Assembly: GCA_947476065.1 (NCBI GenBank)
Contig: CANJPG010000006.1
Coordinates: forward strand, 6,507 to 70,506
From: Fidelibacterota bacterium
Lineage (GTDB): Bacteria; Pseudomonadota; Alphaproteobacteria; Rhodospirillales; Rhodospirillaceae
Direction: 5' to 3'
Length of the DNA stretch: 64,000 nucleotides
Of this stretch, positions 24,358-52,420 are shown piece by piece. Each line of letters starts with the position of its first letter. Position 1 is the stretch's first letter. Below the pieces are notes generated by a model that had not been told where the DNA came from, searched no databases, and was given only the letters and a program-made list of their open reading frames with translations. Both the position numbers and the translations under genes were made by a program.

Positions 24358-24375
24358 TATCTCGACCCTCAATTC

Positions 24376-24404
24376 TTGACTTCCCGGGGGGTCGCGCCTA
24401 TGTT
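24376..24404 (+). promoter_or_regulatory. sigma70-like promoter candidate in the rpoN-ptsN gap (TTGACT-N17-TATGTT)
   Basis: The hexamers were read from the sequence. It lies 235 nt upstream of the ptsN start. Confidence 0.3.
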
Positions 24405-24639
24405 CCGCCACCTTTTGAAAGGCCTGCGGCACGCGCTGCGCCGCCCGCCATTTTCGGCTACCGGTTTCTTGGGCGTCATCATTGTATGACGGGGGAGACG
24501 CGGCACTAGCCGATGCGACAGTGAACAAAAATAACGGTCGAGTTTATCGTCTCGTATGAAATCGGTTTTGTCCGCATCCAGTTCACGCTTGCCCCGCCGG
24601 CGAACGCTAGCTTTTGGTACGGCGGCTTAAGGGCGCGAC

Positions 24640-25101
24640 ATGGAAATCAGTGATCTCATCAAACCCGAAGCGGTGATTTCGGGCCTGAAGGCTAGCAGCA
24701 AAAAGCAAGGGATGCAGGAACTCGCGCGCCATGCCGCGCAGATCACTGGCGTCAACGACAAGAAGATTTTCGAAACGCTGCTGGAGCGCGAACGCCTGGG
24801 CACAACCGGCGTCGGCAACGGCATTGCGATTCCGCACGGCAAGCTGCCCGAGTTCAAGCGTCTGTACGGCGTCTTCGCCAAACTCGACAAGCCGATCGAT
24901 TTTGACGCCATCGACGAACAGCCCGTCGATTTGATCTTCCTGCTGCTGGCGCCCGAGGGCGCCGGGGCTGACCATCTCAAGGCGCTGGCCCGTGTTTCGC
25001 GCCTTCTGCGCGATGCCCGCACCTGTGAAAAACTGCGCGGCACTAATACCGCCGATGGCCTTTACATGCTGCTGATCCAGTCGGAAGCGCAGGCCGCCTA
25101 G
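24640..25101 (+). CDS. ptsN: PTS IIA-like nitrogen regulatory protein PtsN (EIIA-Ntr)
   Basis: 153-aa ORF. The phosphorylatable His lies in the context GVGNGIAIPHGKL. It sits in the conserved location downstream of rpoN. Confidence 0.9.
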   Translation: MEISDLIKPEAVISGLKASSKKQGMQELARHAAQITGVNDKKIFETLLERERLGTTGVGNGIAIPHGKLPEFKRLYGVFAKLDKPIDFDAIDEQPVDLIFLLLAPEGAGADHLKALARVSRLLRDARTCEKLRGTNTADGLYMLLIQSEAQAA

Positions 25102-26154: not shown

Positions 26155-26287
26155 GTAACAGCTCCTGCCGCACCGCGGCATCAATGGCGGCACAGATTTG
26201 GTTCGAATCAGGCTGGCATAATTTGGATACTTTTAGGTTAACGCGGCGGCTGTCATGATCGCAGCCGGGACGGAAACGGGAGATTCC

Positions 26288-27907
<1,620 letters not shown>

Positions 27908-28043
27908 GCCCCGGCCTACGGCCATGGGATTTGGCGTTTTGCCGAACGTTAAGGAATTTGTTACACCCTTCGGGGACTAAGAGTACCCGCTTCCATTGGG
28001 GGATAGGGGTCGCTAGCCACGGAACGGAGTGGGGACAACCAGA

Positions 28044-29824: not shown

Positions 29825-30604
29825 CTAAGTCAGAGATTGCTGCGCATCATCGCGGAACGTCCCGGCGATGAAATGATCCCGCAACGCGTGGCGCAGATCA
29901 AAAGCGGCAGCGATGCGCACCGCGCTATCAGCTGCTTCGCCCAACGTCCCGCCATTCGCGATCGCCGTTAAAAACGCCCTATCACCGGCTGCGATGGCGC
30001 GCGTGGCGACATGATGATCCTTGCGCGTGATGATCACCGTTTCGGCGACACCCAAATCAATCTCCGGCACGGCGGCGACCTCGGGCTGGTTGACCTGCCA
30101 GATGCGCTGGATCGGAAACGCCGACGCAACCAGACGTGATGCCGGATGCAGGTGTAGCCGAGTGGTCTCTATGTCTTCGGGCGGCAGGGCCGCGAGACGT
30201 GCAAAGTCGAGCGCCGGCGCATCGGCTGCAAAATAAGCTTCCGCCCGCGCCCACTCCAGCCGCGCGACATCAGCCAGGTAAGGCAAACGCTGCCCAATGT
30301 CGGCGTGCGCGATGAAAGCGGCGAACGCGCCGCCGTAGGCCGAAAGCTGCGGCACAGAAGGTGGCGCGGCGACGACAAAGCGGTCGGCGAGCTGCGCGAA
30401 AATGGCTTCACCGACAATGCGCCGGCTCACTGGGTAGGCCGCCGCCAACACCTCCACCAGACTGCGGCGCACGGTATGGCGGTGTACCGCGACGCGGGCC
30501 GCGATGTTTTCATCCGCCCGCAACAACGCGCCCAGCGCCCCATCCCCGCTCCCCAGCACGGCTGCACGGAACCGGCTTTGCATATCGCGCAGCTCAAGCG
30601 GCAT
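29825..30604 (-). CDS. bufC: DUF2063-family protein (MbnC/BufC-like partner of the DUF692 enzyme)
   Basis: It lies directly downstream of the DUF692 gene. The start at 30604 (MPLELRDMQSRFRAAVLG) gives an 11-nt overlap with the bufB stop. The N-terminal helical region is typical of DUF2063. Confidence 0.7.
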   Translation of the reverse strand: MPLELRDMQSRFRAAVLGSGDGALGALLRADENIAARVAVHRHTVRRSLVEVLAAAYPVSRRIVGEAIFAQLADRFVVAAPPSVPQLSAYGGAFAAFIAHADIGQRLPYLADVARLEWARAEAYFAADAPALDFARLAALPPEDIETTRLHLHPASRLVASAFPIQRIWQVNQPEVAAVPEIDLGVAETVIITRKDHHVATRAIAAGDRAFLTAIANGGTLGEAADSAVRIAAAFDLRHALRDHFIAGTFRDDAQQSLT

Positions 30605-31433
30605 GGGGTCGCCCCCCGGCCCGTTGGTCAAGTATGACCTGCGCCGCATGGGCTTCGCCCAACAGGACGCTGATCTCTGGAACATCGCGGTCCCATTCGA
30701 TCAGCGTCGGTCGCGCGCCGATGCGGGCGATGGTGTCGGCGTAAAGCGCCCAGACCGCGTCGCTCACGCGCGCATCGTGCGTATCGATCAGCATTCCATT
30801 TGCAACGCTGTGTCCGGCAAGATGGATTTCACTGATCGCCATGGTCGGCAGTGCGCGCAAATATGCCGCCGCATCGCCGCCGGTATTCGCGGCGCTCACA
30901 TAGACATTGTTGATATCCAATAAGATGCCGCAGCCGGTGCGCTCTACCAGCCGTGTCAGGAATTTGGCTTCGCCCATTGTCTCATCGGCGAAGGCAATAT
31001 AGGCCGACGGATTCTCGACCAGAATGCGCCGTCCGAAACTGTCCTGGGCCGCGGCGACATTGGCCGCGACGATATCGAGGACGCGTTCGGTATAGGGCAG
31101 GGGCAATAGGTCGTTGAGATAAGCACCGCCTGTGCTGCTCCAGGCCAGGTGCTCTGAGATCAGCCCGGGCTGGACGCGGGCAAACAGCTTTTTCAGCCGC
31201 GCGAGATGGGCTGGGTCGAGGCCGTCGGCAGATCCCAATGACAAGCCGACGCCGTGGCAGCTCAGCGGATACTGTGCGACGACGGCGTCAAGCATGGCCA
31301 ATCGCGGGCCGCCGTCACATAAAAACGTCTCGCTGTGGATTTCGAGCCATGGGGCAGTCGGCGAGTCTTCAGCAGCGAACGCCGCCAGATGCGCTGTCCG
31401 CAATCCGATGCCGGCGGCCTGCGGAATCTCCAC
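30594..31433 (-). CDS. bufB: DUF692-family MNIO enzyme (MbnB/BufB-like, TIM-barrel)
   Basis: 279-aa ORF with GIGLRTAHL, WLEIHSETF, LISEHLAWS, ILVENPSAYI, LLDINNVYVSA, EIHLAGH, IDTHD and TLIEWD. This pattern is as I recall it for UPF0276/DUF692 proteins. Confidence 0.85.
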   Translation of the reverse strand: MEIPQAAGIGLRTAHLAAFAAEDSPTAPWLEIHSETFLCDGGPRLAMLDAVVAQYPLSCHGVGLSLGSADGLDPAHLARLKKLFARVQPGLISEHLAWSSTGGAYLNDLLPLPYTERVLDIVAANVAAAQDSFGRRILVENPSAYIAFADETMGEAKFLTRLVERTGCGILLDINNVYVSAANTGGDAAAYLRALPTMAISEIHLAGHSVANGMLIDTHDARVSDAVWALYADTIARIGARPTLIEWDRDVPEISVLLGEAHAAQVILDQRAGGRPHAA

Positions 31434-31456
31434 GCCACCATCCTTGCACGCCTCGC

Positions 31457-31801
31457 TCAGGTCGCGTCCTTGGTGGGCGCCGGCGTGGCTGCCGGGGCTG
31501 TGGCCGGCGGGTCATCGAAGGCCGCCAGCTTGCCGCCCATCTTCACGCAGCTGCCCGCGTCCACCAGCATCCATTCCTGGCCACTGTTGTCGATGGTCGA
31601 AAGCCCGCCGCAGGTGTGGCTGCCGTTGGCGGCGGCGCAGCCGTTCTCGCCGGCCTTGGCGACGCCGTAGCACTGCTCTTTGCCTTTGGCCTGTTGGGCC
31701 TCGGGCATGGTGCCGGCGGGGCCCTTGCCGGCGTCGAGCGCAACCGCGCCGGCAATTGCGGCAGCGCCGACCACGGCGGCAGCCAGAATTTTCTTGTCCA
31801 T
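31457..31801 (-). CDS. bufA: DUF2282-type RiPP precursor (bufferin-like): signal peptide + four-Cys core + Pro/Ala-rich tail
   Basis: The start at 31801 has AGGA 6 nt upstream. The protein reads MDKKILAAAVVGAAAIAGAVA..EQCYGVAKAGENGCAAANGSHTCGGLSTIDNSGQEWMLVDAGSCVKMGG. It lies immediately upstream of the DUF692 gene. Confidence 0.8.
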   Translation of the reverse strand: MDKKILAAAVVGAAAIAGAVALDAGKGPAGTMPEAQQAKGKEQCYGVAKAGENGCAAANGSHTCGGLSTIDNSGQEWMLVDAGSCVKMGGKLAAFDDPPATAPAATPAPTKDAT

Positions 31802-31983
31802 GGGCATTCCTAAAATCCGCGAAATGACGGCTATCATAAACCAGACGCAGCGCTTTTAGAATCACGCGCCCGCGAGCCCGGTTGCTCTAAGCGAGCGTAT
31901 TGCTGCATTTTCGGTCCGCCTGCAATATTTGTAATATTCGGTGAATTGACCCTTGCCGCCCTTGTGGGGGAGAACCCGTTGCC

Positions 31984-33747
31984 ATGCAGCATGCCCCTGA
32001 CGCAGCGCCCGTTTTGCGCCCGACCCCCAGCGATACGCCCAGCTTGCCCAAGCGGTTGGCCGACTTTGCAACCCTCAGCGAAGCCTTGGATTACGCCGGG
32101 AAAAGCGACACCGGATTCAACTTCTATTCGGCACGCGGCGAGCTTGAGAAAGTGCTGCCATTCCGCGACCTGCGCGACCAGGCCGCCAGCCATGCCCGGC
32201 GCCTGGCCGCAGCCGGGCTCAAGCCTGGTGACCGGGTTGCTTTGCTGGCCGCTACGGCGCCTGAATTCCTGATCCTGTTTTTCGCCTGCCAATACGCCGG
32301 GCTCATTCCCGTGCCTATGCCGCTGCCGACCGCTTTCGGGCGGCGCGAAGCTTACATCGATCAAATCAAAGGCCAGATGCTGTCCTCGGGCGCGCGCATG
32401 GCCTTGGGTCCCGCCGAGTTCCTGCCCTTTGTGCATGAAGCGGCGGCGGGCCTGCCGATCCAGCTTATCGGAACGCTGGCCGATGTCGCGGCTTTGCCGG
32501 AAGGCAACGGCGAGCTGCGCCCCGGCGGCACCGACGATCTCTCCTACATTCAATACAGCTCCGGCTCGACGCGGTTTCCCATGGGTGTGATGGTGACGCA
32601 TAAGAGCCTGCTCGCGAATTGTCATGCCATGAATAAGTACGGCATCGACAATCGGCCCGGCGAACGCGCCATGTCCTGGCTGCCGTTCTTCCACGACATG
32701 GGCCTAGTGGGTTTCATGCTGGGCGGCGTCACCAGCCAGTCGTCGATCGACTATCTCAGCACAGAGGATTTTGCGCGCCGTCCACTGACTTGGCTGAAGA
32801 TCATCAGCGATAACGGCGCTTCGCTGTCTTATGCGCCATCGTTTGGCTACGAGCTTTGCGCGCGGCGTGTCTCCAACATGGCCGAAGGTGCGCTGGATCT
32901 TGACCTCTCGAAGTGGCGCGTCGCTGGCATTGGCGGCGAGATGATCAAGCCAAAAGTCATGCAAGCCTTCGCTGCCGCCTTCAAGCCATATGGATTTTCG
33001 GACAAAGCCTTCTGCGCCAGCTATGGCCTTGCAGAATCTACGCTGGCGGTCAGTTTTGCGCCCGTCGGCACCGGCATCAAAGCCGATCACGTCGATAAAG
33101 CCGCCCTCGAAGCCCATCGCGCCGATCCGGTCGCGGAATCCGAAGGCCGCACCTTCGTCTCCTGCGGCCGCGTGTTGCCCGCGCACAGCGTCGAAGTACG
33201 CGACGAGGCCGGCGCTGTTCTCGGCGCGCGCCAAGTGGGCCGTGTGTTTGTGGCTGGCCCCAGCATCATGCAGGGCTACTTCAATAGTCCTGCGGAGACC
33301 GCCGAATGTCTGCAGAACGGCTGGCTCGACACCGGCGATCTTGGCTATTGGCTGGATGATGAAATCGTCATCGTTGGCCGCGCCAAGGATATGATGATCA
33401 TCAACGGCCGCAACGTCTGGCCCCAGGACATTGAGTGGACTGTGGAACACATCGACGGCCTTAAGTCCGGCGACAGCGCCGCCATTCTGCTGGCCGACGC
33501 CGACGGTGTCGAACGTCCCACCATTCTCGTACAATGCCGCCCGTCCGATCCGGCCGAGCGCGCCCGCGTCGCCGCCGACGTGCGCGCCCGCGTGCAGGAA
33601 GCCGTCGGCATTGCCTGTGACGTCGTGCTGGTGCCGGCGCGCAGCCTGCCCAAGACGACCTCCGGCAAACTCGCCCGCGGTCGCGCCAAGACCATGTTCA
33701 TCGCCGGCGCAATCCCGGTGCTCCCGGCTACGCCACCGGCCGCGTAA
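31984..33747 (+). CDS. fatty-acyl-AMP ligase / acyl-ACP synthetase-type adenylating enzyme
   Basis: 587-aa ORF with YIQYSSGSTRFPMGVMVTH, WLPFFHDMGLVG (FAAL-like) and GWLDTGDLGY..GRAKD. It is the first gene of the four-gene operon ending in spt. Confidence 0.85.
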   Translation: MQHAPDAAPVLRPTPSDTPSLPKRLADFATLSEALDYAGKSDTGFNFYSARGELEKVLPFRDLRDQAASHARRLAAAGLKPGDRVALLAATAPEFLILFFACQYAGLIPVPMPLPTAFGRREAYIDQIKGQMLSSGARMALGPAEFLPFVHEAAAGLPIQLIGTLADVAALPEGNGELRPGGTDDLSYIQYSSGSTRFPMGVMVTHKSLLANCHAMNKYGIDNRPGERAMSWLPFFHDMGLVGFMLGGVTSQSSIDYLSTEDFARRPLTWLKIISDNGASLSYAPSFGYELCARRVSNMAEGALDLDLSKWRVAGIGGEMIKPKVMQAFAAAFKPYGFSDKAFCASYGLAESTLAVSFAPVGTGIKADHVDKAALEAHRADPVAESEGRTFVSCGRVLPAHSVEVRDEAGAVLGARQVGRVFVAGPSIMQGYFNSPAETAECLQNGWLDTGDLGYWLDDEIVIVGRAKDMMIINGRNVWPQDIEWTVEHIDGLKSGDSAAILLADADGVERPTILVQCRPSDPAERARVAADVRARVQEAVGIACDVVLVPARSLPKTTSGKLARGRAKTMFIAGAIPVLPATPPAA

Positions 33748-34697
33748 TGGCACTCCCCGTCGTCGCGGTCACGGGTGCGACCGGCTTCATCGGCCGGCGC
33801 ATCGTGCGCGCGCTGGTGGACTACGGCTGCGACGTGCGCGCACTGGCGCGGCGCACTTCGGCCCTCGCACAGGAGGAAACCACCGATGCGGTCACCTGGG
33901 TGATCGGCTCTCTGACCGATGAAAACGCGCTGAACGCCTTGGTGAAGGACACCATCGCCGTCGTGCATTGCGCCGGCGCCATCAAGGCCCAGAACCGCGA
34001 CGCTTTTCTGGCCATCAATGGGGCGGGCACCCGCCGTCTGGCCGAGATCGCCGCCGCCCAACCGGTGCCGCCGCGTTTCATCCTATTGTCGTCGCTGGCC
34101 GCCCGCGAACCGCGGCTGTCGGCTTACGCAGCCAGCAAACGCGCCGGCGAGCAGGCCCTGCGCGGCCTCAAGGGCCGGCTGCCGTCGATCATTCTGCGCC
34201 CGCCCGCGGTCTACGGTCCTGGCGACCTGGAAACCCTCAAGGTCTTCCAGATGGCCGCCCGCGGCTTCATCGCCGCCCCCATGGTCGCGGGGGCCCGGGC
34301 GTCTTTGGTGCATGTGGACGACGTTGCCCGAGCGGTGCTGGCGGCCCTGGAACTCGACAGCCTCCCCGACCAGCCCATCGAGTTCGATGACGGCACCCCC
34401 GGCGCTTATAGCTGGGCCGAGATCGCCGCCGCCGCCGGCGCGGCCTTGCGCACCACCCCCCGCCTGATCCCAGTGCCGGCTCCAATCCTCTACCTGGCCG
34501 GAGCCCTGGCGAGCCTCTCAGCCGCTCTGACCCATCGGCCGGGGGTAATGTCCTGGGGCAAAGTGCCTGAATTACTGCATCCGGACTGGGTCGCCGCCGA
34601 TGGCCTATTCCCGGGCTATAAGCCCCTCTGGGATATAGAAAAAGGCTTTAAAGATGCGGTCACCTGGTACACCTCACGGGGCCTGTTAACATCGTAA
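33747..34697 (+). CDS. NAD(P)-dependent extended SDR (candidate ceramide/3-ketosphinganine reductase)
   Basis: The Rossmann motif is VAVTGATGFIGRRIV and the catalytic motif is YAASK. Its start overlaps the stop of the preceding gene. The functional assignment rests on gene context only. Confidence 0.7.
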   Translation: MALPVVAVTGATGFIGRRIVRALVDYGCDVRALARRTSALAQEETTDAVTWVIGSLTDENALNALVKDTIAVVHCAGAIKAQNRDAFLAINGAGTRRLAEIAAAQPVPPRFILLSSLAAREPRLSAYAASKRAGEQALRGLKGRLPSIILRPPAVYGPGDLETLKVFQMAARGFIAAPMVAGARASLVHVDDVARAVLAALELDSLPDQPIEFDDGTPGAYSWAEIAAAAGAALRTTPRLIPVPAPILYLAGALASLSAALTHRPGVMSWGKVPELLHPDWVAADGLFPGYKPLWDIEKGFKDAVTWYTSRGLLTS

Positions 34698-34818
34698 CGG
34701 CTGAGTTGATTTGTAACCTTTTCGTCATTCCCCCACTCTGAGCCTTAGCACCTGCAACATAATTGCCGTTTCGAAGCGCAGGGGCGGACGAGGAACGTTT
34801 CAGGATGGGGTTTAGGAC

Positions 34819-35076
34819 ATGAGTGGCGGCACGGAGCCGTCGGCCGAAACCCTCACGGCGCTCTACGACATCCTGGAGACGTTCAACAAGACCGGCGCCG
34901 CGTTCGCGCCGGGGACCCGGTTCAGCGAAGACCTGAACTTTGATTCCCTGGTCGTGATGGAGTTCGTGGCCGTTGTTGAGGATGCCTTCGATATCTCGAT
35001 ACCCCTCAACATCCTGCCGGACATTGCGACGATTAAGGACTTGGCGGTGGCGGTCGAAAAGATCGTCGCTGAATAG
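34819..35076 (+). CDS. dedicated acyl carrier protein
   Basis: 85-aa acidic ORF with the phosphopantetheine Ser motif LNFDSLVVMEFV. Confidence 0.8.
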   Translation: MSGGTEPSAETLTALYDILETFNKTGAAFAPGTRFSEDLNFDSLVVMEFVAVVEDAFDISIPLNILPDIATIKDLAVAVEKIVAE

Positions 35077-35125
35077 ACCACCGGCTCCGGATCGAGTTTT
35101 GGTTCAATTGTTAGAGGACTAATAC

Positions 35126-36370
35126 ATGGCCGCTTTGTTTGACCGCTTCGCTCCCTTGATGGCGCAACGCGACGCTATGCTCGGCGACGGCGGCGTCAAT
35201 CCGTTCAAAGTGAAGATGGATCAAGTCCTCTCGCAGACCGAAGCCATCATCGCCGGCCGTCACACCATCCTCGTCGGCACCAACAATTACCTCGGCCTGA
35301 CCTTCGCACCCGAAGCTTTGAAAGCCGCGCATGACGCGCTCGAAGCTTGCGGCACCGGCACCACCGGCAGCCGCGTCGCCAACGGCACCTATCACGGCCA
35401 CAAAGAACTCGAAGACGCGCTGTGCGATTTCTTCGGCAAAGAACACGCCATGGTCTTCTCGACCGGCTTCCTGGCCAATCTGGGCATCCTGTCAACGCTG
35501 ATGGGCCCCGAAGACTACATCCTGATGGACGCCGATTGTCATGCCTCGATCTACGACGGCGTGCGCGGCAGCTCCGCCCAGATCATCCGCTTTAAGCACA
35601 ATGACGCTGGCGATCTCGACAAGCGCTTGGGCCGTCTGGCCGACAAGCCGGGCAACAAGCTGATCGTCATCGAAGGCATCTACTCGATGCTCGGCGATAA
35701 AGCGCCTTTGGCCGAGATCGTCGCGGTGAAGAAGAAATACGAAAACGTCTACCTGCTCTCGGACGAAGCCCACTCGGTCGGCGTGCTCGGCAAGTACGGC
35801 CGCGGCCTGCCCGAAGAAGTCGGCTGCGAAGACGACGTCGACTTTATTGTCGGCACGTTCTCGAAGTCGGTTGGCACCGTCGGCGGCTTCTGTGTCTCCA
35901 ATCACCCGGATTTCGACACCCTGCGTCTGGTCACTCGCGCTTATATCTTCACCGCCTCGCTGCCGCCCTCCGTGGTGGCCTCGGCGACCGTCAACCTCGG
36001 TCTCGTGCGCAACGGCGGCGCCCTGCGCAAGCGCCTCATGCGCAATGCCCAGCATCTACACGCCGGCCTCACCGCCTTGGGTCTAAAGGTCGCCAGCGAG
36101 AACAGCCCGGTTGTCGCCGTCGTCACCCCTGATCCGCAGGTCGCCCTGATGTTCTGGCGCGGCCTCATCGAAGCTGGCGTTTACGTCAACCTCGCCCTGC
36201 CGCCGGCGACGCCTTACGGTTACTCGTTGCTGCGCGCCAGCCTCTGCGCCGCCCACACCGAAGAGCAACTCGACAAGGTCATCGCGATTTTCGCAGAAGT
36301 TGCGGCCAAGGTCGGGGTCATCGCCCCGGTCGAAAGCCTGCCGGTCCGCAAGCGGAGCGCCGTCGCCTGA
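35126..36370 (+). CDS. spt: alpha-oxoamine synthase, serine palmitoyltransferase-like
   Basis: 414-aa ORF. PLP-Lys lies in the context GTFSKSVGTVGG, with SDEAHSVG also present. The Spt call (versus BioF/Kbl) rests on the ACP/FAAL/SDR operon context. Confidence 0.75.
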   Translation: MAALFDRFAPLMAQRDAMLGDGGVNPFKVKMDQVLSQTEAIIAGRHTILVGTNNYLGLTFAPEALKAAHDALEACGTGTTGSRVANGTYHGHKELEDALCDFFGKEHAMVFSTGFLANLGILSTLMGPEDYILMDADCHASIYDGVRGSSAQIIRFKHNDAGDLDKRLGRLADKPGNKLIVIEGIYSMLGDKAPLAEIVAVKKKYENVYLLSDEAHSVGVLGKYGRGLPEEVGCEDDVDFIVGTFSKSVGTVGGFCVSNHPDFDTLRLVTRAYIFTASLPPSVVASATVNLGLVRNGGALRKRLMRNAQHLHAGLTALGLKVASENSPVVAVVTPDPQVALMFWRGLIEAGVYVNLALPPATPYGYSLLRASLCAAHTEEQLDKVIAIFAEVAAKVGVIAPVESLPVRKRSAVA

Positions 36371-36393
36371 TATATTAAGGTTTTGTGGCCATC

Positions 36394-36424
36394 AACGCCG
36401 GGATTAGTCCCGGCGTTTTTGTTT
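36394..36424 (+). terminator. rho-independent terminator after spt
   Basis: The hairpin AACGCCGGGA-TTAG-TCCCGGCGTT is followed by TTTTTGTTT, 24 nt after the spt stop. Confidence 0.8.
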
Positions 36425-36434
36425 GTGCTAAAAC

Positions 36435-36899
36435 ATGGTCTCGATAATCAGCGCGGGAGCATCGCTGATGATGACGGCTTTTCTCGACCAGATCAGCGCT
36501 CGACTGACGGCCACGGGCATACCCGCCCAGCTGATCGAGGAAGCCTATGATCCGTCGCAGCCGCACCACGGCACGCTTATTTTCCAGGCCGACTGTTTGA
36601 CTCTGCGCTTCACACGCGATCACGGGCAAGATTTTCTCGACATCGCGACGGCCTTGGCGCCGCGCGAATTTTATTGGTTCGGCGACATCGAGGTGGCGAT
36701 GGGATGGGGGTCGCTGGAACGCATTTTATCGCGTGCCGCCGCGCCGCCGATCGATGAGGTCATCAACCGGCTCGGCCAGCATGTCGCCGAGCTGAGAAAA
36801 GCCTTCTTCAAGAATATCGATCATTTCACCCACGCCCGGATCGCGCGCACCATGCGCCGCCCGGATAGCCGCACCCACAGCAGCAGGCCAACGCCTTAG
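36435..36899 (+). CDS. hypothetical protein (154 aa)
   Basis: The ORF has coding-like GC3 bias and no recognisable motif. The start is uncertain (36435 or the internal ATGATG). Confidence 0.4.
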   Translation: MVSIISAGASLMMTAFLDQISARLTATGIPAQLIEEAYDPSQPHHGTLIFQADCLTLRFTRDHGQDFLDIATALAPREFYWFGDIEVAMGWGSLERILSRAAAPPIDEVINRLGQHVAELRKAFFKNIDHFTHARIARTMRRPDSRTHSSRPTP

Positions 36900-37801
36900 C
36901 GTAGGCCCCCGCGGCGCACGGTCTTCAGCAGAAGGCGAGCGCCCGTGCGCAAAGGGCGTTTGCGTTCGGCTTCGGTCAGCTCGATCTTGACGCCTGAGTG
37001 GCGCTCGATCTTCCAGGTCGCATAATCAAGTCCGCCCTGGAACGTGAAGGCTGCTTTGATCAGCCGCAGCACATTTAAAGTCTTTCCCTGAATGCGCCGC
37101 AGACGCCAGGCCGTCGCCGCGCGCTGCAGGTCATCCGCTGTGCCCGGTTGATAGGGCGCCGCGCCAAGCGCCGCGCCCGTGATGGCCTCGTAGCGCGCGA
37201 GATCGGCGTCCACCAGTTCGATACACTTGGTTTCTTTTTCCGGCCGCAGTTCGGCCCGATAGGTTTCGGCGAAGGCCCTGACCCACAGATCGCGCGCGGT
37301 ATAGGCGCCGCTCATCAAGGGCTGCACATTCATCATCGTGGTGCGCACCGCACTGGCCAGGCCGTCGGTCAATCTGCGCCGGACTTCCGGGTTGCGGGCA
37401 TACACAATCGCCGCTGGCTGAGCGAAGCGCGCCCATAGGCTCGAGGCGAAGCTGTCAGGTCCGACGCCATGCACAAACTGTTCCACGGAAATCAACGCCA
37501 CCTTGGCGCGCAACTTGCGGCCCTCGAAATCCATCTCGTGATAGTAGACATTTGGCGGCAATAAGCGGGCGAAAGCCGCAGACGTAAAGCTGCGCAGCGC
37601 TTCGGCATAGCGGTCCACCAGTACATAGAAATCTAGCAGCAAGCCCATGTCGGTCTTCTGGCGCAGGCACGAGCCGTAGAAAATGACGCCCGCGCTGGAC
37701 CGACCGTAATGATCCACAAGATGCGCGGCGAAGGCTTTGGCGGCCGCAAAAGTGTCGCGGTCGGCTTCGGCGGTGATCAGGGTGTCCAGATGATTGCTCA
37801 T
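36896..37801 (-). CDS. uncharacterised 301-aa protein translationally coupled to the lipid kinase (possible nucleotidyltransferase-like N-terminus)
   Basis: An ATGA overlap with the upstream kinase gene lies at 37798-37801. The N-terminal VIFYGSCLRQKTDMGLLLDFYVLVD is reminiscent of nucleotidyltransferase-fold/Tam41-like proteins. That resemblance is weak and judged by eye. Confidence 0.55.
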   Translation of the reverse strand: MSNHLDTLITAEADRDTFAAAKAFAAHLVDHYGRSSAGVIFYGSCLRQKTDMGLLLDFYVLVDRYAEALRSFTSAAFARLLPPNVYYHEMDFEGRKLRAKVALISVEQFVHGVGPDSFASSLWARFAQPAAIVYARNPEVRRRLTDGLASAVRTTMMNVQPLMSGAYTARDLWVRAFAETYRAELRPEKETKCIELVDADLARYEAITGAALGAAPYQPGTADDLQRAATAWRLRRIQGKTLNVLRLIKAAFTFQGGLDYATWKIERHSGVKIELTEAERKRPLRTGARLLLKTVRRGGLR

Positions 37802-38778
37802 GCCGGAAGCCTGATGAAGTTCAGCCGATGATTGCCGTCGAGTTCCAGCGGCTGTTCGGAACTGGCCTCATACAACTCGCCGTCCAGCGTGTAGGCGCCG
37901 GTGAAACGCAGCGTGATGCGGTCCATGCGCCGCACGGTGCGCCCGGCTCCCGAGGTGATCCGACGGTGCATCAACGCCGGCAGCATGCCCGCAATCGGCC
38001 GCAGGCCCGCGCGCAGGCTGATGTAGTGCAAGGGCTCGGCCCCGTCATCGGATGCGGTCGCCGGCTGCAGGCCTAGCAAAAGCTCGTCCAAAGCCGTCAC
38101 CGCCACGGCGAAAAAATTGCCCTGCTCGACGACATCGCGGCCGTCGCTGATGTGCACCGCGCCACGGTCGCCGCGCGCCAGAAGCCCCCGCCACAGCAGC
38201 ACGCTCATAGCTGCCATGTGGCTGAGCGTATTGGGCAGCTTCAGCGGATAGATATGCCGGCGGCAAAAATGAATCCCGTCGACGATTTCCGCCGCGCCGA
38301 AAAATGCGCCGTACAGCGGCGGCATGGCCGCGTTCTGGCGCAGGGCCAGGACCGGGCGGTTGACGATGTGGCGGGCCAGCGTGCCGTCGCGCCGGCTTTG
38401 CAGCACGCGCGCGAGCGCGGCCTCAGGCGTGCCGGTCAGGCTCCAGCCCGCCGTGGTCATGTTGGTCTTGCCGGCCGGCAGCAGGGCCAGCGCCGGCAGC
38501 GCGCCATAGGCGCTGCTATTCAGCAGGGCGGCGAACACCAGATCGGCGGTACCATCGCCTCCGTTGACGGCGATGGTCTGGGCACCGAAGGCCGCACTTT
38601 GTCTGACGGCGTCCGCCACCTGATCGGCGCGGTCGATCTGCACGTGCACCACATTGACTTCAGCTGACAGCATGGGGTCGACCCAATTGTCCCCGCGCAG
38701 ATTACGGGTGCTTCCGCGGTTGGTGATGACGGCAAGGGGTGTCACGGGATGAGGTGTCGCGCTGTGGTTTGAGGTCAA
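37798..38778 (-). CDS. diacylglycerol/sphingosine-kinase-family lipid kinase (candidate ceramide kinase)
   Basis: The DAGK catalytic-domain signature is IAVNGGDGTADLVFAALL. The protein is about 326 aa with a TTG start. The ceramide specificity is inferred from the neighbourhood. Confidence 0.75.
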   Translation of the reverse strand: MTSNHSATPHPVTPLAVITNRGSTRNLRGDNWVDPMLSAEVNVVHVQIDRADQVADAVRQSAAFGAQTIAVNGGDGTADLVFAALLNSSAYGALPALALLPAGKTNMTTAGWSLTGTPEAALARVLQSRRDGTLARHIVNRPVLALRQNAAMPPLYGAFFGAAEIVDGIHFCRRHIYPLKLPNTLSHMAAMSVLLWRGLLARGDRGAVHISDGRDVVEQGNFFAVAVTALDELLLGLQPATASDDGAEPLHYISLRAGLRPIAGMLPALMHRRITSGAGRTVRRMDRITLRFTGAYTLDGELYEASSEQPLELDGNHRLNFIRLPA

Positions 38779-38950
38779 ATGCTGTGTGGCGCAGAGGTTT
38801 TAACAGCCTACGCTATATCCTTAACGTGTTGGGATGGTATGAAAAAGCCCCACTGGCTCCCCCGGACCGCCTCGCCTACACTCCCGAGTGTTAAGGCTGC
38901 TCGCGACGGGGGTGCGGGGGGCTCGCCCGACCCTTGCCGGCAGTGGATAT

Positions 38951-40210
38951 ATGATTAAAGCCATCGACCGCTACCTCCTGCGTCAAATCGTGCCGACGAT
39001 CGTGGTGATCCTGTTCATCGCCGCGGTCATCCTGTGCATGGAACGTCTGATGCGCCTTCTGGACATCGCGGTCGGCAACGGCGTCTCGACGCTGGTTGTC
39101 TTCCAGATGTTGTTCTATCTCATTCCTTATTACATCAGCCTGGCACTGCCCATGGCGCTGTTCCTGGGCGTGCTCTTGGCCTTCCGCAAGCTCTCGGCCC
39201 AGTCGGAGCTGGACGCCATCCACTCCTGCGGCATCGGTATGGGTCGATTTATCCGTTCGGCCCTGGTGCTGGCGGTCTTCATGATGGGCGTCAACCTGCT
39301 GCTCACCGGCTACATCCAGCCCTATACGCGCTATCTGTTTCGCGCGGTGATGTTCAACATCACCTCCGGCGTCATCGAGCAGGGCATCGGCGAGGGCGTG
39401 TTCATGAGCCTGCCCAACGGCTACACCCTGCGCGTCGAGCAATCGCGCGGCGGCGGACGCGAGCTGTACGGCGTCTTCGCCCACAAGCAGGAAGACGACG
39501 GCCATATCGTCACGCTCACCGCCAAGCGCGGCGAACTGCTGACCGGCGCCATGGAAGGTACGGTCTCCTTGCGCCTCTACGAAGGCAACCGCTCGGAGTG
39601 GGACCCGGCCACCAAGGCCCCCTCGACGCTGCAGTTCGACGTCTTCGACTGGCCGTTGAACCTGTCCGACCTCGTGCGTTTTCGCGGCCGCGGCGGCGAC
39701 GAGCGCGAGTTGACCCTGGTGGAGCTCATGCGCGGCTATCGCATCAATCTGCTGGCGGGCCGCCACGGCAATATCGCCGAGGTCAATCCAAAACCCGACA
39801 AACCGCCCGAAGAGGTTATAGCTCCCTCCGCCGTGGCATCGGAGTTTCACTTCCGCCTGGTGTTCTCGCTGTCGATGCTGCTGCTGCCGATCCTGGCCGC
39901 GCCCCTTGGAATCATGACCAACCGCGCCAGCCGCTCCTTCGGGCTGATCTTCGGGCTCTTGATCCTAGTCAGTTATCACAAAGTCCTGGAATTCACCGGC
40001 GCCTACGCGGCCACCACCGGTGCGCCGGCGGGTCCCTTGCTGTGGACCGTCTTCGCCATCTTCACGGTTGCCACGTTCTATTTATTCTACCGCACGGAAA
40101 GCAAAGCCGGGACGCCGCCGGTCCTGTTGATGGAAGCGCGATGGATCGCCTTCACCGATCGTATCGTCGCGGTATTCCGCCCCAACCGTGCCGCGCCCGG
40201 CACAAGATGA
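38951..40210 (+). CDS. lptF: LPS export ABC transporter permease LptF
   Basis: The internal start MIKAIDRYLLRQIVPTIVVILF is a typical LptF/G N-terminus. It is a six-TM YjgP/YjgQ-type protein followed by lptG. Confidence 0.85.
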   Translation: MIKAIDRYLLRQIVPTIVVILFIAAVILCMERLMRLLDIAVGNGVSTLVVFQMLFYLIPYYISLALPMALFLGVLLAFRKLSAQSELDAIHSCGIGMGRFIRSALVLAVFMMGVNLLLTGYIQPYTRYLFRAVMFNITSGVIEQGIGEGVFMSLPNGYTLRVEQSRGGGRELYGVFAHKQEDDGHIVTLTAKRGELLTGAMEGTVSLRLYEGNRSEWDPATKAPSTLQFDVFDWPLNLSDLVRFRGRGGDERELTLVELMRGYRINLLAGRHGNIAEVNPKPDKPPEEVIAPSAVASEFHFRLVFSLSMLLLPILAAPLGIMTNRASRSFGLIFGLLILVSYHKVLEFTGAYAATTGAPAGPLLWTVFAIFTVATFYLFYRTESKAGTPPVLLMEARWIAFTDRIVAVFRPNRAAPGTR

Positions 40211-40220
40211 GCCTTTCCAT

Positions 40221-41297
40221 ATGATTTTGTCGCGTTATCTCATGCGCGCCTTCCTCGGGCGCTTTGTCATGCTGCTGTTGGGGCTGGTGGTCTTCCTGCA
40301 GACCTTGGACCTTTTGGCCACCGCCAACGAAGTTCTTGAAGGCGGCGGCGATCCGCTGCCCTCGCTGGCCCGCTATGTCGCGCTGCGTTTGCCGGGTCTG
40401 GTGGAAACGGTCGCGCCCTTGGCGGCCCTTCTCGGTGCGCTCACCGCCATGGTCGGCATGGCCACCAACAGCGAGATCCTGGCCATGCGCGCGGCCGGCC
40501 GTTCGGTCTTGAGCCTCGTCGGCGGACTGGTCAGCGTCGGCCTCGTGCTGTCGGCGATGCTGTTCACCTTCTCCGAATTCGTCGTCGTGCCGGCCAACGC
40601 CGATCTCCAGGAGTGGCGCGACGCCGACTTCAAGACCGGCGAAGGCGCCATCGCTAGCGGCGAGAACAGCTGGATCCGCGAAGGAACCACCATCATCCGC
40701 GTCGGCCACGTCATGCGCGACGGCACGGTGCTCAACGACGTGCGCCTGTTCAAACAGGACGAGAACGGCAATATCAACGACATCGTCGGCATCCGGCTGG
40801 CGATCTGGGAGAACGAGCACTGGTCCACTTTTGAAGTCGCCCGTATCGCCGGCAATGACGACAGCGCGTCGCCGCCGGCCTGGGAAACCCAGCTGAAGCC
40901 CGAGCACTTTGCCCGCTTCGGCGCCAACCACCCCAACGAGCTGTCCTTGAACGCCCTGCAACAATATATCGGCAACGTGGCAATTGGCTCGCGGCCCGGG
41001 TACTTCTACGACACCTGGCTGCAACAGAAGATTGCGGGCCCCATCGTGCTGGCTCTGATGCCCTTGTTGGCCGCCATCGCCGCCTTCGCCCACCACCGGC
41101 AAGGTAGCTCGGTGGTCACAATTGTCTGGGGCGTGACGGCCGGTTTTGCCTTTGTCGTCATCGACAATATCGTGCTCGCCATGGGCCAGTTCGGCTCCCT
41201 GCCGCCCTTGCTCGCGGCCTGGCTGCCCATAGCCCTCTTCGGGACCCTGGGATTGTGGCTAATCTTCAACCTTGAACATACTGGCGCCCGCACCTGA
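40221..41297 (+). CDS. lptG: LPS export ABC transporter permease LptG
   Basis: The internal start is MILSRYLMRAFLGRFVMLLLGL. It has the YjgP/YjgQ layout with a periplasmic beta-jellyroll insert. Confidence 0.85.
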   Translation: MILSRYLMRAFLGRFVMLLLGLVVFLQTLDLLATANEVLEGGGDPLPSLARYVALRLPGLVETVAPLAALLGALTAMVGMATNSEILAMRAAGRSVLSLVGGLVSVGLVLSAMLFTFSEFVVVPANADLQEWRDADFKTGEGAIASGENSWIREGTTIIRVGHVMRDGTVLNDVRLFKQDENGNINDIVGIRLAIWENEHWSTFEVARIAGNDDSASPPAWETQLKPEHFARFGANHPNELSLNALQQYIGNVAIGSRPGYFYDTWLQQKIAGPIVLALMPLLAAIAAFAHHRQGSSVVTIVWGVTAGFAFVVIDNIVLAMGQFGSLPPLLAAWLPIALFGTLGLWLIFNLEHTGART

Positions 41298-41351
41298 GCG
41301 GGCTTATATACCTGCAGCGGCAGGCCTTTGTGGCCTTAAGGCGGGGCAGCG

Positions 41352-42164
41352 GTGGCTTTTAAACTCGGATTCTGGAGCGACAAGGAATACCACCTCGACC
41401 GCATGGATCTGCGCGGTCTGACGGCGGCTTATTTCCAATATTACGCCATTGCCGCCTATATCGTCGTGGCGCTCGCGGCGGGCGCTTTCGCCCTGTGGGG
41501 TGTGCTGAGCGGCGACGCCCGTTTGCTGCCCGTGCTCCTGGCCATGCTCGCCACGTTTTTCATCTACCCCGTCGTCTGGTACCTGCTGCACCGAAACATC
41601 CTGCACAGCAAATGGATGTGGAAATCGCCGCTGACCGCCGGCACCTGGAAGCGCATCCATTACGACCACCACAGTGACCCCAACAATCTGAAAGTTTTGT
41701 TCGGCGCGCTCTACACCACGCTGCCGACGGTCGCCTTGGCCAGCATGCCAGTGGGCTACCTGCTCGCCGGCTGGGTCGGCGCCATGGCGGCGCTGGCGAC
41801 GGGTGTCGTGCAGACCTGCATATATGAATACTTCCACTGCATCCAACACCTTGGCTACGCGCCGAAGTGGGCCTGGGTGCGCGAGATCAAGCGCTTCCAC
41901 ATGTCGCACCACTTCCACAACGAGAACGGCAACTACGGCATCACCAATCTGTGGTGGGACAAGGTGCTGGGCACATTCTACGACGGCGCCGCCGCGAGGC
42001 CGCGTTCAGCCACCGTGTTCAACCTCGGCTACGACGAGGAGGTAGCGAAAAGCTATCCTTACGTCGCGCGCATGACGCCCAATTGGCCCTACAACACCAA
42101 TCCGATTCATCGCCGCCGCGAGGAAGCCGCCAAGGCCGAAGCCTCCGCCGGCGCCCACGGCTAG
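41352..42164 (+). CDS. fatty-acid hydroxylase / sterol-desaturase superfamily membrane di-iron enzyme
   Basis: The histidine boxes are HRNILH, HYDHH and HMSHHFH, with several TM segments. Confidence 0.75.
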   Translation: MAFKLGFWSDKEYHLDRMDLRGLTAAYFQYYAIAAYIVVALAAGAFALWGVLSGDARLLPVLLAMLATFFIYPVVWYLLHRNILHSKWMWKSPLTAGTWKRIHYDHHSDPNNLKVLFGALYTTLPTVALASMPVGYLLAGWVGAMAALATGVVQTCIYEYFHCIQHLGYAPKWAWVREIKRFHMSHHFHNENGNYGITNLWWDKVLGTFYDGAAARPRSATVFNLGYDEEVAKSYPYVARMTPNWPYNTNPIHRRREEAAKAEASAGAHG

Positions 42165-42171
42165 CCCCGGC

Positions 42172-43323
42172 ATGAACGCAAGCCCGGTCACGATCCGCCG
42201 TGTCGGCACGGACGCCAGTCTCGCGCAGTTCATGGCGGTACCCCATGTCACTCAAGGCCACGACCCCTATTGGGTGGCGCCGCTGTCGCTGCTCGAGGCC
42301 CCGCGCCTCAATCCCAAAAAGAACCCGTGGTTCAAACACGGCGAGGCCATGCTTTTTGTCGCCGAGCGCGACGGACAAGGTGTGGGCCGCATCTCGGCGC
42401 AGATCGATCAAAGCCACCTGAAACTTTACAACGACAGCACCGGCTTCTTCGGCTTCTTTGAATCCATCGACGACCAGGCTGTAGCCGAAGCGCTGTTCAA
42501 CGCGGCGGCCGCCTGGCTCCGCGAGAAGGGTATGACCCGCTGCGTCGGCCCCTTCAGCTTCAACGTCAACGACGAGTCCGGCCTGCTCATCGACGGCTTC
42601 AACTGTCCGCCGCGCATGATGATGGGCCACGCCCAACCTCATTACGGCACACTCGTGGAGAAGGCCGGCTTCACCAAAGTCGTTGATATGCGCGCCTACC
42701 TCACGCCCATGGATACGGCGCTGCCCTTCAAGCAGATCAAATGGCTGAAGCGGGCTTTGGACCGCAATGCCAACCTGGCCGTGCGGCCCATCGACATGAG
42801 CCGTTACGATGAGGAGATGAAGGCCATCGGCCGCATCTTCCGCGCCGCCTGGCTCGAGAACTGGGGTTCGATCCCCATGACCGATGACGAGATTGCCCAC
42901 ATGGCCGCCGAGATGAAGCTCATCATCGTGCCCGAACTGGTCTCCATCGCCACCATCGACAACGTACCCGTGGCCATGTGCGTGGCGCTTCCCGATCTCA
43001 ACGAAATGACCCGCGATCTGCGCGGCAAGCTGTTTCCCTTCGGCTGGGCCAAGCTGATCTGGCGTTTGCTCACGCGCCGCTCCTTCGTCTCGGGCACGCG
43101 CGTGCCGCTGATGGGCGTCATGCCCGACTACAAGAACAAGCCCATGGGCTCGATGCTGGCGCTGCTGACGGTGGGCGCCATGCGCGACGCCTCACTCAAG
43201 ATGGGCATGCCGGTCTGCGAGATGAGCTGGGTGCTCGAGACCAATACCCAGACCTGCCACTCGATTGAGGATATCGGCGGGCGGGTCTACAAGACCTACC
43301 GCATGTATGAAAAGGCGCTGTAG
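42172..43323 (+). CDS. large (383 aa) GNAT-like acyltransferase-family protein (candidate bacterial ceramide synthase)
   Basis: The ORF begins 8 nt after the hydroxylase stop. The C-terminal half resembles a GNAT fold by eye. The functional call is context-based only. Confidence 0.5.
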   Translation: MNASPVTIRRVGTDASLAQFMAVPHVTQGHDPYWVAPLSLLEAPRLNPKKNPWFKHGEAMLFVAERDGQGVGRISAQIDQSHLKLYNDSTGFFGFFESIDDQAVAEALFNAAAAWLREKGMTRCVGPFSFNVNDESGLLIDGFNCPPRMMMGHAQPHYGTLVEKAGFTKVVDMRAYLTPMDTALPFKQIKWLKRALDRNANLAVRPIDMSRYDEEMKAIGRIFRAAWLENWGSIPMTDDEIAHMAAEMKLIIVPELVSIATIDNVPVAMCVALPDLNEMTRDLRGKLFPFGWAKLIWRLLTRRSFVSGTRVPLMGVMPDYKNKPMGSMLALLTVGAMRDASLKMGMPVCEMSWVLETNTQTCHSIEDIGGRVYKTYRMYEKAL

Positions 43324-43572
43324 ATGCTAGCCGCGTTTTTCCGGCTGTTTGTGTTTGTCGTCGTACTGGCCGCATTGGGCCTTCTGTTCTTCTACGCCTT
43401 CATCGCCGCCTTGATCATCACGCCAATCTTGTTCGTGCTGTTCTGGCTGTTCGGCCGCAAGCCGGTGGTGCAGTGGGTGGTGCGCACCGGTCCCCGGGCC
43501 GGCGCGGGCCAGGGACCGATCATCGACCACGATCCCAATGCCTTCCCGCCCCGGGATCAGGACCCCGCCTAG
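43324..43572 (+). CDS. 82-aa two-TM membrane protein
   Basis: Its start directly abuts the preceding stop (TAGATG). It has a strongly hydrophobic N-terminal 45 aa and a Pro/Gly-rich tail. Confidence 0.45.
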   Translation: MLAAFFRLFVFVVVLAALGLLFFYAFIAALIITPILFVLFWLFGRKPVVQWVVRTGPRAGAGQGPIIDHDPNAFPPRDQDPA

Positions 43573-50699: not shown

Positions 50700-50776
50700 G
50701 CGGGCGTTTCTATCATATTTTGCGCACGGCCAACCGGCCTCGTATAAACTGCCGCTTCGCTGAAGGAGTGACGTCG

Positions 50777-52402: not shown

Positions 52403-52420
52403 ACGTGCTATGTCTGAGCC

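Follow-up and report, generated by a model that had tools for sequence, protein, structure and literature searches.

A compact gene cluster for predicted sphingolipid biosynthesis and export in an uncultured freshwater Rhodospirillaceae-like lineage

Layout of the locus

We have analysed a 64,000-nt stretch of DNA (hereafter the window) from contig CANJPG010000006.1 of assembly GCA_947476065.1, deposited as a Fidelibacterota bacterium and assigned by GTDB to the Rhodospirillaceae. The subject is a run of four genes that a first-pass annotation, made from the letters alone, had described as a co-directional bacterial ceramide core operon. Open reading frames (ORFs) were found at exactly 31984–36370, all on the + strand: an aasR-type gene for a fatty acyl-AMP ligase (FAAL)/acyl-ACP synthetase (587 aa, 31984..33747, recognized by family profiles), a cerR-type gene for an extended short-chain dehydrogenase/reductase (SDR) predicted to reduce the C3 ketone (316 aa, 33747..34697, PF01370), an acpR-type gene for a dedicated acyl carrier protein (ACP; 85 aa, 34819..35076, PF00550) and spt, the gene for serine palmitoyltransferase (SPT; 414 aa, 35126..36370, NF047599). 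A second gene caller, run independently, returned the identical four genes on six public contigs encoding an identical SPT. The description of the genes as partly overlapping holds for the FAAL/SDR junction, where one base is shared (TAATG), but not for the other two junctions, which have gaps of 121 bp (SDR to ACP) and 49 bp (ACP to spt). The ACP gene thus lies directly 5′ of spt, and acpR is immediately upstream of spt in all Rhodobacteria listed in PMC9386255.

The strong terminator proposed at the end of the spt transcript was also recovered. A hairpin at 36394–36417 (+), which begins 24 nt beyond the stop codon of spt, has a 10-bp stem (7 G-C pairs) and a 4-nt loop followed by TTTTGTTTGTG, the whole intrinsic terminator-like element (hairpin plus T-tract) spanning 36394..36427. 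Its folding energy is −21.3 kcal/mol (z=−3.1), a stability reached in 1/200 shuffles. A terminator consensus scan gave 3 sites versus 5.0 ± 2.4 in shuffled sequences, that is, no excess of terminator-like sites; the case for the terminator therefore rests on the position and stability of the hairpin.

The four genes form the front of an 11.6-kb sphingolipid cluster (31984–43572) that extends ∼7 kb past the interval first annotated. All five ceramide genes, a lipid kinase, a Tam41-like gene, a hydroxylase and lptFG are packed into these 11.6 kb. G+C content at third codon positions (GC3) is high in the cluster genes, in line with the host genome.

Proteins of the four-gene core

In Pfam and NCBIfam profile searches the family scores of the four proteins are far beyond chance, and all six motifs quoted in the first-pass annotation were located. 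In the SPT the motif GTFSKS is at residue 243. This protein matches Aminotran_1_2 (E=5.4e-57) and the NCBIfam serine palmitoyltransferase model NF047599 with 606 bits (cut-off 500), while all sister families of the α-oxoamine synthases (AOS) score below their cut-offs: BioF 312/426, Kbl 311/460, ALAS 239/339 and CqsA-type 194/428. Among PDB structures, bacterial SPTs occupy the top of the ranking with 456–488 bits (2X8U 488, 2JG2 460); Kbl structures reach at most 235 bits and BioF structures at most 174, so that the SPTs lead by >200 bits. Profile scores and structure ranking therefore agree with the original assignment of the AOS as Spt rather than BioF, Kbl or ALAS.

Residues H159, D231, H234, K265 and R390 of Sphingomonas paucimobilis SPT correspond to H139, D213, H216, K247 and R370 in the window SPT, and these catalytic positions are invariant across the 87–88 homologues aligned. 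One further difference, Arg378 to Leu358 in the ‘RPPATP’ loop, was considered as the loss of a substrate-binding residue and rejected: the Arg is limited to 13 Sphingomonas sequences, SPTs from outside Sphingomonas have L, I, V or F at the site, and the experimentally active enzyme of Escherichia coli BL21 has Leu. The window SPT is 54–57% identical to the SPTs encoded in the Sphingomonas loci fetched. It is predicted to form 3-oxosphinganine by condensing L-serine and a long-chain acyl thioester.

The FAAL carries QYSSGST at residue 190 and FFHDMGL at 235 and matches Pfam AMP-binding (E=3.5e-51) and the NCBIfam fatty acyl-AMP ligase model NF006624 (781 bits, cut-off 600). Among solved structures it is closest to that of E. 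coli FAAL (EcFAAL), 3PBK (531 bits, aligned end to end). The alignment contains only indels of 4 residues or fewer, hence no EcFAAL segment is deleted in the window protein. The elements of EcFAAL responsible for rejection of CoA are W224, M231, F279 and a FAAL-specific helix, T252-R258 (PMC8460268). In our reading of the 3PBK alignment the three residues map to W232, M239 and F287, and the helix (TQDFAMR in EcFAAL) is aligned with TEDFARR at 260–266.

In the SDR the motifs are GATGFIG at residue 10 and YAASK (the YxxxK motif) at 127; the match to Epimerase/extended SDR (PF01370) has E=8.8e-30, and the closest solved relatives are NDUFA9-like proteins. The SDR gene adjoins that of SPT in most loci compared, which span several phyla. 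The phosphopantetheine serine of the ACP (Ser43) is within DSL, residues 42–44. The protein matches PF00550 (PP-binding) with E=2.4e-8 and falls short of all NCBIfam cut-offs for housekeeping ACPs (41 bits versus 66), as expected of a specialized carrier.

All four proteins have counterparts in the E. coli BL21(DE3) genome: the FAAL is 45% identical to ECD_02851 over 552 aa (E about 1e-171), the SDR 37.5% to ECD_02852 over 296 aa (E=4e-58), the ACP 40% to ECD_02853 over 60 aa (E=2e-12) and the SPT 51% to ECD_02854 over 387 aa (E about 1e-133). When the BL21 proteins were searched against all ORFs of the window, the same operon genes were returned, so that all are reciprocal best matches. Other window candidates were rejected as true orthologues: two further AMP-binding enzymes (7210–10176 and 26255–27907) are clearly outscored by the operon FAAL as the match of ECD_02851, and a second SDR (5895–6875) is clearly the poorer match to CerR.

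The equivalence with BL21 is informative since three of its four core genes (aasR, acpR and spt) have been tested experimentally. ECD_02851, ECD_02853 and ECD_02854 are the BL21(DE3) equivalents of the Caulobacter genes, and aasR, acpR and spt of both organisms were shown to make 3-oxosphinganine from acyl-AcpR; in Caulobacter, CC_1165 (AasR) selectively acylates CC_1163 (AcpR), and SPT prefers acyl-AcpR (PMC9386255). For the window proteins, it is the co-occurrence of the genes that suggests a selective acylation of AcpR by AasR and a preference of SPT for acyl-AcpR over acyl-CoA. The proposal that this organism makes sphingolipids from an ACP-bound acyl donor is thus supported, with activities predicted by homology, by the SPT scores and the reciprocal best matches to BL21 aasR, cerR, acpR and spt.

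Ceramide synthase, hydroxylase and an 82-aa protein

The four genes alone would make no ceramide. The ceramide synthase gene lies at 42172..43323 (+), outside the interval described as a ‘ceramide core operon’. It encodes a bCerS-type protein of 383 aa that is 42% identical to E. coli YghO over 379 of the 383 aa (E=5e-102, reciprocal). The gene yghO/ECD_02850 is given in PMC9386255 as orthologous to CC_1154, which encodes the ceramide synthase of Caulobacter. The window protein has no strong Pfam match (GNAT is weak, E=0.009), and no relative with a solved structure was found. Homologues of bCerS adjoin SPT directly, as SDR-SPT-bCerS triads, in loci of Nitrospirota, Desulfobacterota and Planctomycetota.

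Only 7 bp 5′ of bCerS is the gene for a 270-aa membrane di-iron enzyme of the fatty-acid-hydroxylase family (41352..42164, +; PF04116, E=1e-19). Its only PDB relative is yeast Scs7p, a ceramide fatty-acid 2-hydroxylase (E=2e-9), and the adjacency to bCerS recurs in relatives as well as in L027, a locus from Nitrospirales. A ceramide or N-acyl hydroxylase is the probable function of this enzyme.

The start codon of an 82-aa protein (43324..43572, +) abuts the bCerS stop codon (TAGATG). The protein starts with a hydrophobic stretch of ∼45 residues, which could accommodate two membrane helices, and its tail is rich in Pro and Gly. It is kept after bCerS in relatives (40–67% identity), and among the genes described for the clusters of Caulobacter, E. 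coli and Sphingomonas we found none that corresponds to it.

The kinase and the Tam41-like protein

Two genes on the − strand are located between spt and lptF. The first (36896..37801) encodes a CpgC/CC_1161-like protein of 301 aa for which profile and fold indicate a Tam41-type nucleotidyltransferase. On its own, the protein has no Pfam match. Its family comprises 1,159 clusters at the 50% identity level, and a profile built from 64 diverse members matches Tam41 6IG2 (E=2e-4) and the bacterial Tam41 7ECD (E=4e-3); 9/64 members match PF09139 (Tam41_Mmp37). The AlphaFold2 model of the protein has pLDDT 90.6, and its top PDB folds are Tam41 structures 6IG2, 6IG4 and 7ECD (TM 0.51–0.57, E down to 9e-8). 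Tam41 is a CDP-diacylglycerol synthase. The Caulobacter protein CC_1161/CpgC is said to have no conserved domain (PMC9393093); its homologues carry the Tam41 InterPro domain IPR015222 (S1 Text of PMC11324152). Profile and predicted fold make the 301-aa protein a probable head-group enzyme acting on ceramide phosphate.

The second gene (37798..38778) encodes a CpgB/CC_1160-like lipid kinase of the DAGK_cat family (PF00781, E=8e-12; 315–326 aa, depending on the start codon). It has GGDG at residue 73, the motif highlighted in the Caulobacter ceramide kinase CpgB (PMC10331486), and is itself a probable ceramide kinase. The two genes overlap by 4 nt and are thus likely to be a two-gene unit. The kinase gene sits between the Tam41-like gene and lptF, as do Swit_3903 and CC_1160; it is this position that suggests a placement in the CpgB clade. 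The Tam41-like gene and the kinase are also paired beside SPT in L038, in L089 and in close relatives, and the kinase match in L063 is marginal. Sphingomonas loci were tried as a bridge to Swit_3902/3903 and rejected: in the loci fetched a 653-aa gene occupies that position, and phmmer and profile searches gave no matches.

The interval from spt to the Tam41-like gene also contains an ORF of 154 aa (143 aa as called; 36435–36899, +) that matches no family. Apart from contigs of the same species, a single relative has it (L042, 53% identity); the others lack it.

The lptF–lptG pair

Downstream of the kinase are genes for LPS-export-type (lipopolysaccharide) ABC permeases, lptF (38888..40210, +; TIGR04407, 244 bits, cut-off 230) and lptG (40188..41297, +; TIGR04408, 269 bits, cut-off 240). 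Gaps in the series lptF-lptG-hydroxylase-bCerS-82-aa gene are 10, 54, 7 and 0 bp, a tight spacing that suggests a single transcription unit. Linkage of lptF to spt is also found in BL21, in Sphingomonas loci and in Caulobacter (the last according to PMC11324152).

A housekeeping block with a KdsD-like SIS+CBS protein, lptC, lptA, lptB, rpoN and ptsN (19366–25101, +) is ∼10–15 kb upstream of the cluster, the lptF-lptG pair being 15 kb from this lptCAB-rpoN block. The only LptC-family gene in the window (20235–21029) is part of that block; the cluster has no second copy. In a complete genome of a relative (L089) the orthologous lptFG pair is near pepA. The pepA gene is a classical neighbour of housekeeping lptFG.

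For Caulobacter, a second lptFG copy dedicated to sphingolipids has been proposed. The lptFG embedded in the window cluster could instead be the only LptFG of the lineage; a single Lpt machine would then export both LPS and an anionic hydroxylated phosphosphingolipid, whose head group would be built by a Tam41-like, CTP-dependent step (via a CDP-ceramide-type intermediate) without a CpgA homologue. We consider this combination unlikely.

Comparison with characterized systems

The cluster can be compared with three well-described bacterial layouts. In the BL21(DE3) island (NC_012971, 2989282–2997066) yghO is divergent and is followed by the genes for FAAL, SDR, ACP and spt on one strand, then by lptG and lptF. 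The order FAAL-SDR-ACP-spt on one strand and the adjacency of a ceramide synthase homologue and an extra lptFG are common to both loci. The differences are that yghO is upstream and divergent in BL21, that lptGF directly follows spt there on the opposite strand, that the island lacks the kinase, the Tam41-like gene and the hydroxylase, and that its LptF/LptG are only ∼24% identical to the window proteins. The structure of the FAAL from this island has been solved (3PBK).

In Caulobacter crescentus the region CC_1168–CC_1152 contains aasR (CC_1165), cerR (CC_1164), acpR (CC_1163), spt (CC_1162), cpgC (CC_1161), cpgB (CC_1160), lptF2/G2 (CC_1156/55) and bcerS (CC_1154). The window has the same aasR-cerR-acpR-spt order, a Tam41-domain gene and a DAGK-family kinase beside spt, and an lptF/lptG pair and ceramide synthase within the cluster (PMC11324152, PMC9386255, PMC9393093); this closeness is one of gene order and published orthologue tables rather than of direct protein alignment. 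On the other hand, the ORFs scanned in the window include no counterpart of CpgA/PgsA, CC_1158, CC_1153 (MobA-like) or CC_1152 and no flippase (CC_1166); genes for CpgA, CC_1153 and CC_1152 could lie elsewhere in the genome. Caulobacter relies on a DesA-family enzyme encoded at an unlinked site (CC_0202), whereas the window has its PF04116 hydroxylase next to bCerS, together with the additional 82-aa membrane protein and the 154-aa ORF.

The window is collinear with Swit_3897–3908 of Sphingomonas wittichii RW1, tabulated as cerR (Swit_3897), acpR (3899), spt (3900), the counterparts of CC_1161 (3902) and CC_1160 (3903), lptF2/G2 (3905/3906) and cerS (3908), and the SPT of this organism is the best PDB match noted above (2X8U). 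The aasR gene of S. wittichii is elsewhere in its genome. Sphingomonads also differ from the window in having Arg378 where the window SPT has Leu358 and, in the loci fetched, the 653-aa gene in place of the kinase/Tam41 pair.

Within the aasR-acpR-spt set, acpR-spt is a conserved operon, with aasR nearby in most taxa and distant in Sphingomonadaceae (PMC9386255). Gluconobacter oxydans 621H (Acetobacteraceae) has aasR-acpR-spt at GOX2058–2056 (PMC9386255), but its cerR (GOX1849) and ceramide synthase gene (GOX2417) are unlinked. PMC10411912 reports, for some Rhodospirillales, an operon of four genes with spt as the last; this operon and the Gluconobacter set both belong to Rhodospirillales in the broad sense. 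Extended clusters are known from alpha-, beta- and gammaproteobacteria (PMC11324152).

The overall chemistry would be that of the eukaryotic de novo ceramide pathway (SPTLC1/2, KDSR and CerS, with Scs7/FA2H, CERK and Tam41). The window SPT scores ∼170 bits to LCB2/SPTLC2, the hydroxylase resembles Scs7p, and the 301-aa protein has the Tam41 fold. In contrast to eukaryotes, the window SPT is of the soluble homodimer type and its acyl donor would be ACP-bound and made by a FAAL; the bacterial reductase and ceramide synthase share no homology with KDSR and CerS (PMC11087976). The window kinase lacks the CxxxCxxC of CERK, a difference also reported for CpgB (PMC10331486).

Conservation in related genomes

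We judged conservation of the core order on complete loci among L001–L024, L041 and L042; partial contigs hold the part that fits. The order aasR-cerR-acpR-spt is kept in all complete loci of the group, with 55–100% protein identity, and the same operon is present in ∼24 related loci from freshwater metagenome-assembled genomes (MAGs) of different lakes. An identical SPT is encoded on metagenome contigs and in GCA_947466105.1. The relatives whose SPT is 79–91% identical are MAGs from fresh water (Erken, Baikal and others), most of them filed as Rhodospirillaceae. The earlier suggestion that a Rhodospirillales-like lineage with such an operon would be something notable is not borne out, given the operon published in some Rhodospirillales, the aasR-acpR-spt set of Gluconobacter and these ∼24 MAG loci.

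Six relatives (L008, L009, L012, L013, L015 and L042; 84–90% SPT identity) are titled ‘Candidatus Marinimicrobia bacterium’ in public records. On MAGs with a Rhodospirillaceae-type cluster this title is probably a taxonomic mislabel.

The accessory gene set is contiguous in the closer relatives. In the complete 4.4-Mb genome of a relative ∼1.2 Mb separates the core operon (L019) from the accessory module (L089); the module stays together there, with bCerS, hydroxylase, lptG-lptF, kinase and Tam41-like gene at 44–70% identity to the window orthologues. Between the hydroxylase and lptG of L089 (3288–6412 of that locus) are genes for a 204-aa protein, a 530-aa Sulfatase-family (PF00884) protein and a second kinase (DAGK_cat+YegS_C). 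These extra genes suggest a different head-group chemistry in that lineage.

Co-localization of Spt, bCerS and CerR, defined by E≤1e-30 and coverage of at least 50%, is a routine marker across 40 phyla (PMC11334938). By this definition the three are co-localized in the window.

Predicted pathway

Taken together, gene presence, motifs, catalytic residues, reciprocal homology to tested genes, predicted fold and conserved synteny lead us to read the interval as the proteobacterial (‘Rhodobacteria-type’) long-chain-base module aasR-cerR-acpR-spt, situated at the front of an 11.6-kb cluster for sphingolipid biosynthesis and export (probability about 0.88). In this pathway AasR would adenylate a long-chain fatty acid, reject CoA and load the acyl group on the phosphopantetheine arm of AcpR (Ser43). 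SPT, with pyridoxal phosphate on Lys247, would then convert acyl-AcpR and L-serine to 3-oxosphinganine, CO2 and holo-AcpR. The base would be N-acylated by bCerS and the C3 ketone reduced by CerR. The order of these two steps is disputed, with acylation first in one proposal (PMC11087976) versus the eukaryotic order in the other. The Scs7-like di-iron hydroxylase probably hydroxylates the ceramide, the kinase of the DAG-kinase family probably yields ceramide-1-phosphate, and the Tam41-fold nucleotidyltransferase probably uses a nucleotide to activate or extend the phosphate head group. Finally, lptF-lptG, apparently co-transcribed with bCerS, probably delivers the product toward the outer membrane.

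Several observations weigh against this reading or parts of it. The organism is uncultured, and all enzymatic activities as well as the lipid product are predictions from homology. The SPT fails the NCBIfam ‘AlphaP’ model (530 bits, cut-off 670) yet passes the ‘BetaP’ model (606 versus 500), which may reflect a separate SPT clade or the way the models were constructed. The SDR has no recognizable signal peptide, its Rossmann motif starting at residue 10; Caulobacter CerR is reported as periplasmic (PMC11087976). The kinase family is fast-evolving, and the YegS match is weak and distant. Database searches with the kinase and the 301-aa protein matched Rhodospirillaceae MAG proteins only and gave no Caulobacter CpgB/CpgC anchor, so that membership in the CpgB and CpgC families is suggested by domain, fold and position and not by alignment to the Caulobacter proteins. 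No CDP-alcohol phosphatidyltransferase or MobA-like NTP-transferase domain was found in the window ORFs scanned, which thus do not hold the complete Caulobacter-type CPG2 set. With no CpgA/PgsA-like or CC_1152/CC_1153-like gene among these ORFs, the CPG2 head group of Caulobacter cannot be assumed. Finally, a single transcript for the four core genes is a prediction, and there is a conserved motif in the 121-bp spacer.

Conserved non-coding elements and alternative readings

The motif in question is a 10-mer, AGTTGATTTG (34704..34713, +), located just after the cerR stop codon and identical in all 15 aligned relatives, while the rest of the spacer is variable and AT-rich. A second element, the 31-nt block TGCAATATTTGTAATATTCGGTGAATTGACC (31921..31951, +), precedes the start codon of the FAAL gene by ∼30 nt. 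It is nearly invariant in the window and 14 relatives, with flanks that are otherwise unalignable, and includes the repeat AATATT-TGT-AATATT. The block falls in the intergenic region shared with divergent bufferin genes (see below) and could, as a putative promoter or operator, serve either side. TGA(A/G)TTGA is common to the 10-mer and the block. Its single occurrence in the window led us to reject the 10-mer as a regulon-wide element; a role as internal promoter or operator in front of acpR-spt is possible.

These elements bear on whether the core is transcribed as two units, aasR-cerR and acpR-spt, from an internal promoter in the 121-bp spacer, an arrangement that would leave the predicted biochemistry unchanged. 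The invariance of the 10-mer amid a variable spacer and its similarity to the block before aasR argue for two units, as does the conserved acpR-spt operon of other taxa, to which aasR is merely a neighbour or, in Sphingomonadaceae, not even that (PMC9386255). Still, a + strand scan found no terminator-like site between cerR and acpR, the consensus scan reported no promoter in this spacer, and an operator, an RNA element or a processing site would explain the 10-mer just as well. We regard the split as possible, albeit somewhat improbable.

A different product would be expected if the AOS did not use serine. FAAL-ACP-AOS cassettes are also found in natural-product pathways, and such a cassette might make another amino-ketone lipid or signal. 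With alanine or glycine as substrate the product would be a 1-deoxy base and with cysteate a precursor of capnine/sulfonolipids; a CAI-1-like autoinducer and a natural-product starter unit are further candidates. The protein does have weaker matches to cysteate acyltransferase (174 bits) and CqsA (129 bits), and the choice of substrate is not readable with certainty from sequence. However, it passes the SPT equivalog while BioF, Kbl, ALAS and CqsA-type models stay below their cut-offs, it keeps all catalytic residues, its relationship to Sphingomonas SPTs is close (488 bits to the S. wittichii enzyme, with the identities given above), and its gene is co-localized with bCerS, CerR, the lipid kinase and lptFG, as in proven sphingolipid producers. 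A non-serine AOS is thus very improbable.

Least probable of all is a silent or relict cluster yielding no significant membrane lipid, as may hold for the horizontally acquired cluster of BL21: a sigma-70 consensus scan did find no + strand promoter upstream of the four-gene operon, but every gene is intact, the core is maintained across the lakes sampled, the accessory module is retained even when moved 1.2 Mb away, GC3 is host-typical, and the conservation of non-coding blocks before both aasR and acpR indicates that regulation is maintained.

We thus retain the long-chain-base module within a sphingolipid cluster as the preferred reading. No concept is changed, since the literature already describes the pathway, its ACP-dependent donor and the four-gene operon, including the occurrence of the latter in Rhodospirillales. 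Mildly particular are the compactness of the cluster, the Scs7-like hydroxylase within the bCerS unit, the lack of a CpgA homologue among the window ORFs scanned and an lptFG pair possibly representing the housekeeping copy; in the latter case one Lpt machine might export both LPS and phosphosphingolipid. A compact and complete sphingolipid cluster in an uncultured freshwater Rhodospirillaceae-like lineage, known from MAGs of lakes Erken and Baikal and of other freshwater datasets, predicts that the lipid pools of lakes receive sphingolipids from these bacteria, probably in the form of hydroxylated phosphosphingolipids. For heterologous reconstitution, the cluster is also a conveniently tidy set of genes.

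Neighbouring genes

Divergent from the FAAL gene is a bufferin-type cluster for a ribosomally synthesized and post-translationally modified peptide (29825–31837, − strand). It consists of genes for a BufA-like DUF2282 precursor (31457–31837, −), the MNIO maturase BufB (30594–31433, −; NF050167, 362 bits, cut-off 310) and an HvfC/DUF2063 partner (29825–30685, −). Its adjacency to the sphingolipid operon is kept in nearly all relatives of the family-level clade and is absent in other clades. A functional link between the two was considered and rejected, and the adjacency, limited as it is to one clade, is treated as inherited gene order. Upstream of the bufferin genes, a 578-aa protein (28029–29765, +) without a Pfam or NCBIfam match is found at 63–85% identity in the same position in most relatives. 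It is preceded in the window by a FACL-type AMP-binding enzyme with AMP-binding_C (550 aa, 26255–27907, +).

A 988-aa protein (7210–10176, −) combines FAAL-like adenylation and PP-binding domains with ∼360 aa at the C-terminus that match no family. Its gene adjoins tRNA-Leu(CAG) (7083–7169), and the stretch immediately beyond, at 8–12 kb, has a G+C content of 0.58 versus 0.62 for the window; the protein may represent a second, unrelated acyl-loading system or be part of an island. An Rfam scan of the window detected one tRNA and nothing else. On the other side of the sphingolipid cluster, a 560-aa protein without a family match (from 50720, +) is followed by a GT2 glycosyltransferase (52421–53413) and a GtrA-family membrane protein (53410–53805), a layout (50720–53805) typical of lipid-linked glycosylation of envelope components.

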